A DNA stretch of 24,179 bases, taken from IMG/VR virus record IMGVR_UViG_2711768048_000001, one strand, 5' to 3'. The position numbers were made by a program, and so were the translations under genes. Each line of letters begins with the position of its first letter. Position 1 is the stretch's first letter. Below, one piece after another: positions 1 to 1,828 of this stretch. This stretch comes from a virus (taxonomy: Duplodnaviria; Heunggongvirae; Uroviricota; Caudoviricetes). Below the pieces are notes generated by a model that was not told the DNA's origin, did no database searches, and saw only the letters and a program-made list of their open reading frames with translations.

Positions 1-299
1 TCTTCGGTGAACGCACTCTGGCCACACTGGAGTGTCTTCTGAGCCTGCTGTCGGCCTTTGAGGTCGTGGTATGGATGACGGATGGCTGGCCGCTGTATGA
101 ATCCCGCCTGAAGGGAAAGCTGCACGTTATCAGCAAGCGTTACACTCAGCGCATTGAGCGACATAACCTGAATCTGAGACAACATCTGGCAAGGCTGGGA
201 CGGAAGTCACTGTCGTTCTCAAAATCGGTGGAGCTGCATGACAAGGTCATCGGGCATTATCTGAACATAAAACACTATCAGTAAGTTGGAGTCATTACC
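1..299 (+). mobile_element. Partial IS1 insertion sequence (right-hand ~300 bp, cut by window edge); terminus ...taagttggagtcattacc ends at 299
   Basis: Translated frame 3..284 matches the C-terminus of IS1 transposase InsB (…[70 protein letters not shown]). The sequence after the stop matches the IS1 terminal inverted repeat as I remember it (ggtaatgactccaactta on the complement). Confidence 0.9.
3..284 (+). CDS. insB: IS1 transposase InsB, C-terminal part (5' end outside window)
   Basis: Frame is open from the window start. The track ORF 66..284 begins at an internal GTG, and upstream in-frame codons (FGERT…) continue the InsB sequence. Confidence 0.85.
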
Positions 300-300
300 C

Positions 301-437
301 AGAAGTATGGTGACAGAAAGGTCCGAGGGCGGTGTTTACCCAAAAGTGATTGGCCTTGATGCTTCAAGAATTGTTCCAACTGCAAACGAAAATCGACCCC
401 GTAACATTGCCTTTAATTATATCGTGAGGGCTGCCTG
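301..437 (+). pseudogene. Possible 3' remnant of an alternative tail-fibre C-terminal segment (stfE/Sv'-like), truncated by IS1
   Basis: The frame starting at 301 is open from the IS1 boundary to a TGA at 435..437 that abuts the tfa ATG at 438. In Mu G / e14 P cassettes this is where the alternate fibre exon sits upstream of the second tfa. Inference from position only. Confidence 0.3.
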
Positions 438-1043
438 ATGGATAAAGCTATATTAAATAAGGAACTCATCGCCACAAAGGCGGGAGATATTACCGTTTAT
501 AATTATGATGGTGAAACACGAGAATATATTTCCACATCAACCGAATATCTTGCTGTGGGTGTCGGTATCCCGGCATGTTCCTGTTTAGATGCTCCTGGCT
601 CATATAAAGCTGGTTATGCAATTTGCCGTTCTGCAGATTTTAACTCATGGGAATATGTGCCAGACCATCGCGGTGAAATCGTCTATAGCACCGAAACAGG
701 AGAATCAAAAGAAATCACAGCTCCGGGTGATTACCCTGAAAAGACAACCACTATCGCCCCGTTAACGCCATACGATAAATGGGATGGTGAGAAATGGGTG
801 ACGGATACCGAGGCACAGCATAGAGCAGCAGTAGACATGGCAGAAACACAGCGGCAGTCGCTGATTGATGCTGCAATGGTTTCCATTAGTCTGATTCAAC
901 TGAAATTGCAGGCCGGGCGGAAGCTGACGCAGGCAGAAAACACCCGACTTAACGCCGTGCTGGATTACACTGACGCGGTGATGGCAACAGATACCAGCAC
1001 CGCGCCAGATGTCATCTGGCCAGTTCCTCCTGAGACGGTTTAA
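438..1043 (+). CDS. Tail fibre assembly protein (Tfa, lambda Tfa / T4 gp38-chaperone family; TfaE-like)
   Basis: 201 aa with the typical Tfa C-terminal signature (…DKWDGEKWVTDTEAQHRAA…[16 protein letters not shown]). It runs opposite to the tail-fibre gene, as the U' gene does in invertible fibre cassettes. Confidence 0.8.
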   Translation: MDKAILNKELIATKAGDITVYNYDGETREYISTSTEYLAVGVGIPACSCLDAPGSYKAGYAICRSADFNSWEYVPDHRGEIVYSTETGESKEITAPGDYPEKTTTIAPLTPYDKWDGEKWVTDTEAQHRAAVDMAETQRQSLIDAAMVSISLIQLKLQAGRKLTQAENTRLNAVLDYTDAVMATDTSTAPDVIWPVPPETV

Positions 1044-1299
1044 TCTCAATCAGAATGGGTTCTCCCTTCTCGTTAACAGATATTTCCATTCCTTCAGGGA
1101 TTTCAGATGCAGTAAAAAACCAGTTATCTTCTGGTAATTCAACAGCCCCGGTCACGTCATGAAGACCGGGGATTACTTCAGTCAAAGTAACAGGATTAAA
1201 CAGGCGCACAATAAACCCTCCAGGAAAAAGCACTTGTTGATGGTGTTCCGTCGTACATCTGGCAGCGGACATAAAAACCGGTATTAGTGACCTGGTCAT
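1012..1299 (-). CDS. Hypothetical protein in the tail-fibre-chaperone position (TfaP position); family not recognised
   Basis: 95-aa ORF directly downstream of the fibre gene, overlapping its 3' end in another frame and converging on tfa. An in-frame stop two codons upstream of the ATG prevents extension. Call is by synteny only. Confidence 0.3.
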
Positions 1300-1828
1300 C
1301 CACGATCATTGAAACGTGAACGTTATTAGATGTGCCCCCATAATCCGTTCCTATTCTTTCCGCTATGCTGATAAAACGTGAAAGCTTAGGTAGCGCAATT
1401 GGATAAACGACTTTAGCCAGTCCATTATCATTAGAACCCCCCGTTCCAAAGACTTCTATTGCACCATCTGACCAGCGTATCCACGCACCATTGGCATTAG
1501 CTCCTCGCTGAATGACATATCTGGCTTCTCCCAAACCAAGGTTTTCGAGAGCCGTTTTCACCGTGCCATCCGATTTGATATCGCCAAACGGATTCTTGCG
1601 GCTTAACAGCAGCGCACGAAGCGCGGTAAGCAGCTGGTCGTGCCGCGCCTTCTCCAGACTGGCACCGGATGCCTCCACCACGCTGCAGAGTTCTTCCTGC
1701 AACATATCAAAGTAGTCATCATCCAGATCGGTGGCAGGCGTGCCAGTCTGGGGGTTACCACGGGTAAAACCGTTCTTACCCGCGCCGAACTTATCCTTCT
1801 GCGCGGTTTTCGTGTCTATACGATGCAT
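1196..1828 (-). CDS. Tail fibre protein, StfP-like (conserved N-terminal part with a short C-terminal segment)
   Basis: 210 aa starting [48 protein letters not shown]…, which I recognise as the conserved N-terminus of Mu/P2/e14-type fibres. GGAG ribosome-binding site 6 nt upstream of the ATG at 1828. Follows the baseplate genes. Confidence 0.7.

Follow-up and report, generated by a model that had tools for sequence, protein, structure and literature searches.

A probable e14-type invertible tail-fibre cassette with IS1 inside its silent exon

The left end of the DNA analysed here is very probably the tail-fibre end of an SfV/e14-like prophage, carrying an e14-type fibre cassette in which IS1 lies within Sv′, the silent alternate fibre exon. 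The stretch analysed (24,179 bp, hereafter the window) is the entire draft contig CXXM01000037.1 of assembly GCA_001268845.1, and its left end falls inside the IS1. The locus is the known e14/Pin invertible P segment, here in a very common E. coli/Shigella prophage family, and its damage is ordinary IS-mediated decay. As such it offers a clean example of mobile elements eroding the host-range switches of bacteriophages: the spare fibre ending has been destroyed, and the expressed ending and the whole morphogenesis module are intact. For the prediction of host range, a phage induced from this strain should be credited with one fibre type only.

The IS1 junction and the remnant of the silent exon

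Bases 1..299 (plus strand) are the 3′ part of an IS1F-type IS1, corresponding to positions 470-768 of the element. They are 100% identical to these positions of the complete 768-bp IS1 at a related locus (L017), and 98.0% and 91.9% identical to K-12 IS1F and to IS1A, respectively. The C-terminal coding region of InsB runs to 284 on the plus strand; indeed, the translation of 3-281 (+) matches the Pfam family DDE_Tnp_IS1 (E 6e-48) over profile positions 39-131 of 131. The right terminal inverted repeat of IS1, ...GTTGGAGTCATTACC, terminates at base 299, and the InsB coding region together with a terminal inverted repeat ending ...GTCATTACC places the element in the IS1 family. The terminal repeat can also be given as ...AAGTTGGAGTCATTACC, its last base again being 299. 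On the other side of the junction, the intact relatives all align from base 300 onward (blastn, 40 related loci).

The junction had no counterpart in 5,426 complete E. coli genomes (megablast of 1-2500), in which the best matches begin at 292-397, and a 43-mer spanning the right IS1/Sv′ junction gave 0 matches in a species-representative genome collection. The 43-aa form of the ORF that crosses the junction was confined to an unrelated contig of 1.7 kb that lacks IS1 (L013), and the 50-aa form had no record on exact look-up. Scans of the window for tRNAs and Rfam families returned no matches.

The DNA that follows IS1 is the remnant of Sv′ (300..438, plus strand), recognized by its matches to PHROG C-termini and by its identity to the Sv′ of relatives. 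A 45-codon open frame occupies 301-435 (+), and its stop codon (436-438) overlaps the tfa start codon as TGATG. The sequence-only reading of this DNA would have been refuted by a 301-437 frame unlike tail-fibre C-termini, but the profile matches show the likeness: the frame 301-435 hits phrog_523 (E 6e-11) and phrog_3100 (E 1e-9), which are tail-fibre profiles, both at the profile end. The same frame equals codons 138-182 of a 182-aa Sv′ ORF in L014 and L037, and the DNA of 300-438 also recurs unchanged where the gene for the 266-aa Sc-Sv′ fibre of L037 ends. In relatives (L014, L020) the 182-aa Sv′ ORF contains a Collar domain and bears the annotation tail fiber or phage tail protein. The junction with IS1 falls within the codon for Val137 of this ORF, and 137 of its 182 codons (~410 bp), the second crossover site among them, are absent from their normal place. 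The proposal that IS1 truncates the alternate fibre exon is thus upheld, with the IS1 end at 299 and 45 of the 182 Sv′ codons kept. In annotation, the 45-codon remnant is a pseudogene fragment of stfE/Sv′.

Downstream of the remnant, tfa (438..1043, plus strand) encodes a TfaE-type tail-fibre assembly chaperone of 201 aa, the one serving the alternate fibre, which matches Caudo_TAP in Pfam (E 7e-30) and phrog_105 (E 1e-95); an exact copy of the protein occurs in 913 indexed blocks of the protein collection. We found no sigma-70-like promoter in 1-2500, and the lack of a promoter upstream fits expression of Sv′-tfa only once it has been flipped behind Sc. The gene is intact, promoterless in its present orientation and orphaned, its usable partner fibre being gone.

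The expressed fibre, its crossover site and neighbouring genes

The fibre gene, delimited from the ORF list and PHROG matches (1196..1828, minus strand), encodes 210 aa and is composed of a constant part, Sc, and a variable part, Sv. Sc, the N-terminal ~92 codons (1552..1828, minus), lies outside the invertible segment and is joined to the baseplate module; over its first ~100 residues the protein matches numerous PHROGs of tail-fibre N-termini (E 5e-56). The variable C-terminal part, Sv (1196..1525, minus), lies inside the invertible segment and matches Gp53-like_C weakly (E 0.002, under the Pfam cut-off). The 210-aa ORF should be annotated as the active fibre.

Inside the fibre gene we located a crossover site of the pixL type, TTCTCCCAAACCAAGGTTTTCGAGAG (1526..1551, plus strand), which encodes ...ENLGLGE... 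within the fibre. This 26-bp site has one match in the window, with 0 expected by chance, and the same 26 bp are present in stfP of K-12 e14. The inverted repeat published for the e14 P segment, CCTTCTCCCAAACCAA (PMC12529663), is 16 bases long; the site contains 15 of them and differs at the first. No second crossover site was detected in the 24-kb contig when at most 3 mismatches were allowed over the 26-mer or 1 over the 14-bp core, and the window accordingly contains no inverted pair; the second site is expected in the part of Sv′ that IS1 has replaced or displaced. Neither did tblastn with K-12 PinE reveal a PinE-like gene in the 24-kb window, so the cassette has no adjacent invertase there, though one may lie past IS1 on a different contig. 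In such systems the serine invertase gene (Resolvase + HTH_7) also holds a Fis-dependent enhancer.

Relatives with an intact cassette possess both sites, with a PinE-like gene ~55 bp beyond the second site that is 55-96% identical to K-12 PinE. Two of them, L014 and L020, carry the full 182-aa Sv′, then the second site, TTCTCCCAAACCAACGTTTATGAAAA, and then a PinE-like invertase (95.7% to K-12 PinE); in K-12 e14, TTCTCCCAAACCAACGTTTATGAAAA is present in inverted form at the start of stfE, adjoining pinE. Because the intact relatives have two sites, the window locus can be regarded as a disrupted member of the Pin/Gin/Cin/Hin (Din) segments. Relatives have often lost the invertase or retain it in truncated form (L005, L012, L023-L025, L029, L031): beside the cassette, 44-49 codons of pinE are left in L005, L023, L025 and L029, and none in L012, L024 and L031.

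Downstream of the active fibre, in the chaperone position, lies an ORF of 65 aa (1012..1209, minus strand); GAGGG precedes its GTG start, and it shares 32 bp with the 3′ end of tfa. RefSeq annotates it as a 65-aa hypothetical protein. A longer, 95-aa form in the ORF list overlaps the fibre gene. The 65-aa ORF has no Pfam match, the Caudo_TAP C-terminal domain included. It matches phrog_5400, a family of unknown function (E 3e-23), and weakly a tail-fibre assembly PHROG (E 4e-4), and is marginally similar to the N-terminal halves of TfaP-like proteins, in the region just before the Caudo_TAP domain. Homologues occur in Escherichia, Enterobacter, Cronobacter, Kosakonia, Hafnia, Yersinia, Citrobacter and Salmonella (Enterobacterales). 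Since all are 57-90 aa long, the ORF is a conserved small protein and not a remnant; the same uniform length across many genera ruled out a truncated TfaP. A chaperone role, suggested by position only, is putative. The positions assigned beforehand to the fibre gene, to this ORF and to the convergent tfa were all confirmed.

Upstream of the fibre lies a Mu-type baseplate module (1832..6835, minus strand), identified from Pfam and the gene tables of relatives. It comprises YmfQ/Gp48, baseplate J, GP46, Gp45, Gp44 and a DNA-circulation protein, with Pfam matches to Gp48 and Baseplate_J, and its proteins are 98.9-100% identical to those of relatives (tblastn). The lengths of the morphogenesis ORFs equal those of relatives (gene tables of L033-L037) apart from two start-codon choices, in the ORF at 3452-3880 (142 aa versus 141) and in the DNA-circulation protein (444 versus 442).

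Inversion in relatives and kinship with known systems

The window contains two convergent sets of genes, namely Sc, Sv and the 65-aa ORF (minus strand) and the Sv′ remnant with tfa (plus strand), and intact relatives have the same layout. Near-identical prophages carry the segment in both orientations. L014 and L020, 99.95% identical to the window over 300-2500, have it unflipped, as in the window; so do L034 and L036. In L010, L033, L035 and L037 the segment is flipped, so that an Sc-Sv′ fibre of 264-266 aa precedes tfa. Identity between L037 and the window is 100% over 1525-6000 and 99.92% over 300-1544; L010 is 100% identical over 1525-2500, its outer flanks being exchanged exactly at the 14-bp core. 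Both orientations thus occur in the lineage, though not in this strain, with constant regions 99.98-100% identical in the flipped relatives. As the closest relative with a 100% identical constant region has the cassette flipped, the ancestor was switchable. Together with the e14 crossover site, these orientations corroborate the e14/Mu-type Sc-Sv-U / U′-Sv′ layout that had been read from the sequence alone.

Alignment to the e14 region confirmed the shared cassette. Gene order and orientation are those of the e14 P segment (stfP-tfaP / tfaE-stfE, pinE), and the DNA is 95.8% identical across 1525-2429 (the 5′ part of stfP, that is Sc, and ymfQ) and 89.7% identical in the region spanning tfaE and the 3′ end of stfE. 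In e14 and the intact relatives of the window the second site is identical, and the invertase of the latter is 95.7% identical to PinE. Homology to e14 breaks at 1524/1525, however: the Sv and chaperone module of the window is non-homologous over 1022-1524 and specifies another fibre tip, with the 65-aa ORF where e14 has the 137-aa TfaP. Unlike in e14, stfE/Sv′ is cut by IS1 in the window, and the contig lacks the second site and pinE. The morphogenesis module of the window prophage, on the other hand, appears complete, whereas e14 is a remnant.

Inversion of the e14 P segment has been shown experimentally, with either PinE or, in trans, PinQ as the invertase, and deletion of stfP or stfE removes an inverted repeat, whereupon the inversion-dependent phenotype is lost (PMC12529663, PMC4272514). 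A chimeric fibre of e14, StfE2, blocks T2 adsorption (PMC12529663).

Among serotype-converting Shigella phages, SfV, SfI, SfII and SfIV have a baseplate and Sc 96-98% identical to those of the window; for SfV, SfI and SfII the identity from 1524 onward is 97-98%. Homology to these three stops at 1524, which is the crossover site, and these phages have a different 3′ part of the fibre downstream of the position of the site. In SfIV the cassette is matched in part only, in two pieces from 526. Because homology to SfV, SfI, SfII and e14 ends at 1524/1525, the crossover site is also a mosaic boundary. The 26-bp site, marking both mosaic and inversion boundary, is useful for annotation.

The cassette is not confined to Mu-type tails. 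P2-like prophages (L003, L004, L006-L009) have the same cassette behind P2-type H genes, 99.2-99.9% identical in DNA over 300-1550, with the identical 201-aa Tfa and 65-aa ORF, a Pin-like invertase and both orientations. They differ in the constant part, in the outer half of the Sc-proximal site (…AAGGTATGCGAGAA) and in their P2-type tail module.

In the G segment of Mu (S/U, S′/U′, Gin) and the C segment of P1 (Cin), a constant 5′ part of the fibre gene is joined to one of two alternative convergent 3′ exons, each with its own chaperone; a serine invertase lies beside the segment, and the crossover sites are at the Sc/Sv border. At the level of organization, the window shares this switch logic. 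With Mu it also shares tail and baseplate genes of the Mu type (Gp44-48 Pfam families). Unlike in Mu and P1, the sites and invertase of the cassette are of the Pin (e14) subtype, and the head and lysis modules are not Mu-like.

We propose that the prophage has a Mu-type contractile tail and a Pin/Din-family invertible fibre cassette. In the intact system an adjacent serine invertase would recombine two inverted 26-bp sites, one at the Sc/Sv border in the fibre gene and the other at the start of the silent Sv′, and inversion would set either Sv and the 65-aa ORF, or Sv′ and Tfa, behind Sc and the late promoter. Here, with an IS1F-type IS1 inside Sv′, the invertase-proximal site is no longer in place, and the prophage is predicted to express the 210-aa Sc-Sv fibre with the 65-aa ORF and to be incapable of making a complete alternative fibre. 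We infer expression from the late operon, and host-range roles of the fibre and chaperones. The alternative fibre is dead whatever adjoins IS1, because only the last 45 Sv′ codons stay beside tfa. The idea that the phage is locked in one specificity therefore holds in the functional sense, there being one functional fibre ending; physical locking is unproven, and so is the loss of the invertase that had been thought probable from the sequence alone.

Insertion, deletion or artefact

How the junction arose can be read in more than one way. To an IS1-associated adjacent deletion or rearrangement we give close to an even chance: this locus would have lost three quarters of Sv′ (the 5′ portion), the second site, and the invertase along with the enhancer inside it, leaving a locked Sc-Sv, and the cassette would stay locked even with another Pin-type invertase in trans. 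Quite possible too, if somewhat short of even, is simple transposition of IS1 into Sv′, by which the beginning of Sv′, the second site and a pinE-like gene, still intact, would have been displaced 768 bp to the left. The segment, then ~2.4 kb, would still be invertible and would alternate between the normal 210-aa fibre and a truncated, chaperone-less one (on/off, not A/B). Simple insertion predicts a 9-bp target duplication (CAGAAGTAT), the first 137 Sv′ codons to the left of IS1, and a left IS1 end (GGTAATGCTGCCAAC...) preceded by ...AATAGTTATTTCTCCTTAGTCAGAAGTAT. The left end of IS1, any target duplication and the other flank are beyond the contig end. The right junction falls precisely at the terminal nucleotide of IS1, as transposition predicts, and simple insertion is the commonest IS1 outcome; L017 has a complete IS1 of this type that is a simple insertion with a 9-bp duplication. 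That the closest relatives all retain the invertase beside Sv′ also speaks for simple insertion, whereas the frequent loss or truncation of pinE beside the cassette in other relatives speaks for a deletion.

The products of a simple insertion were sought by exact look-up of six chimeric Sv′-IS1 proteins (duplications of 8, 9 or 10 bp, combined with either an ATG or a TTG start), the chimera for the 9-bp duplication ending ...SLVRSMVMLPTY and then a stop. None of the six was present among ~15 billion proteins, where the genes of the source assembly are indexed. A homology search with the chimera of 9-bp duplication and ATG start likewise gave no C-terminally truncated member among the cluster members read; its top clusters comprised only full-length proteins and contig-edge proteins incomplete at the N-terminus. 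With the source assembly indexed, the absence of the chimeras leans slightly to deletion. A miss of this kind is also explicable by one amino-acid difference, another gene call or a very short flanking contig. The source contig is continuous through the crossover site, suggesting one orientation in the sequenced culture, and several unitig-type assemblies of near-identical prophages (L039-L042) break exactly at this site, both of which favour a deletion; many ordinary assemblies (for example L034 and L036) are, however, also continuous through it, which makes the argument from contig continuity weak. The IS1 of L017, which lies 8 kb from the cassette, was considered as a pointer to an IS1-cassette deletion and ruled out, its relative orientation being opposite.

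It is highly improbable that the assembler joined an IS1 fragment to a cassette that is intact in the strain. The window is a draft contig terminating in a repeat, as might be expected of such an artefact, but a break that coincides with the final base of the IS1 inverted repeat and falls in mid-codon of Sv′ is the signature of a real insertion junction and not of k-mer collapse. Moreover, IS1 and Sv′ share no repeat that could have misled assembly, and there is no homology left of base 300.

Returning to an insertion without deletion, we suggest tentatively, as something rather doubtful, that both sites and the invertase survive and that the A/B host-range switch has become an on/off fibre switch. 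If so, each inversion would also reverse the direction of IS1 and of the promoterless tfa, and the set of chimeric Stf proteins of the lysogen would change too, by analogy with e14 StfE2 (PMC12529663).

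Exchange of the cassette with P2-like prophages

The tail-fibre cassette also lies behind P2-type H fibre genes, where the same module (99.2–99.9% DNA identity) occupies locus positions of about 9450–11140 in related loci from P2-like prophages (L003, L004, L006–L009 and L011). Both orientations of the cassette occur among these prophages. Their half-site (…AAGGTATGCGAGAA) proximal to Sc, the constant N-terminal part of the fibre gene, is unlike that of the window. Mu-tail and P2-tail prophages therefore exchange this module, with the crossover site as the point of exchange.

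Loss of the invertase in relatives, and contig breaks at the crossover site

In four related loci both crossover sites are kept, while pinE is cut to its first 44–49 codons (L005, 9292–9423; L023, 17823–17969; L025, 17481–17627; L029, 17783–17914). A GmrSD-type restriction gene adjoins the pinE stump, and this arrangement is a recurrent alternative route to invertase loss in this prophage family.

L039–L042, four Logan contigs of the unitig type that come from other strains, match the window at 100% identity in their constant regions, and every one of them stops at the crossover site (locus 13979–13992, corresponding to window 1513–1526). Such stops are expected if the sequenced cultures contained both orientations, or if the genome carries the cassette at more than one place. 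Unlike these four, the source contig is continuous through the crossover site. This draft contig, CXXM01000037.1 (GCA_001268845.1), is the complete window (1–24179); it breaks off on the left at IS1 position 470 and ends on the right inside the prophage early/late regulatory region, where there is no IS. A scan of the whole contig found no tRNA genes or Rfam families.

Two small open reading frames

Downstream of the active fibre gene lies a 65-aa ORF (1012–1209, minus strand), which overlaps the convergent tfa gene by 32 bp. It belongs to a conserved small-protein family (members of 57–90 aa) spread over Enterobacterales. The ORF has no Pfam domain and bears only a marginal resemblance to the stretch that immediately precedes the Caudo_TAP domain in TfaP-like chaperones; it may be a minimal fibre chaperone.

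The tape-measure and DNA-circulation genes flank a 176-aa ORF (6891–7421, minus strand) that has no Pfam family. Exact copies of its protein are extremely common, with 14,059 blocks of the protein collection indexing it. Since some relatives have a 162-aa ORF or no ORF at this position, it looks like a moron-like insert.
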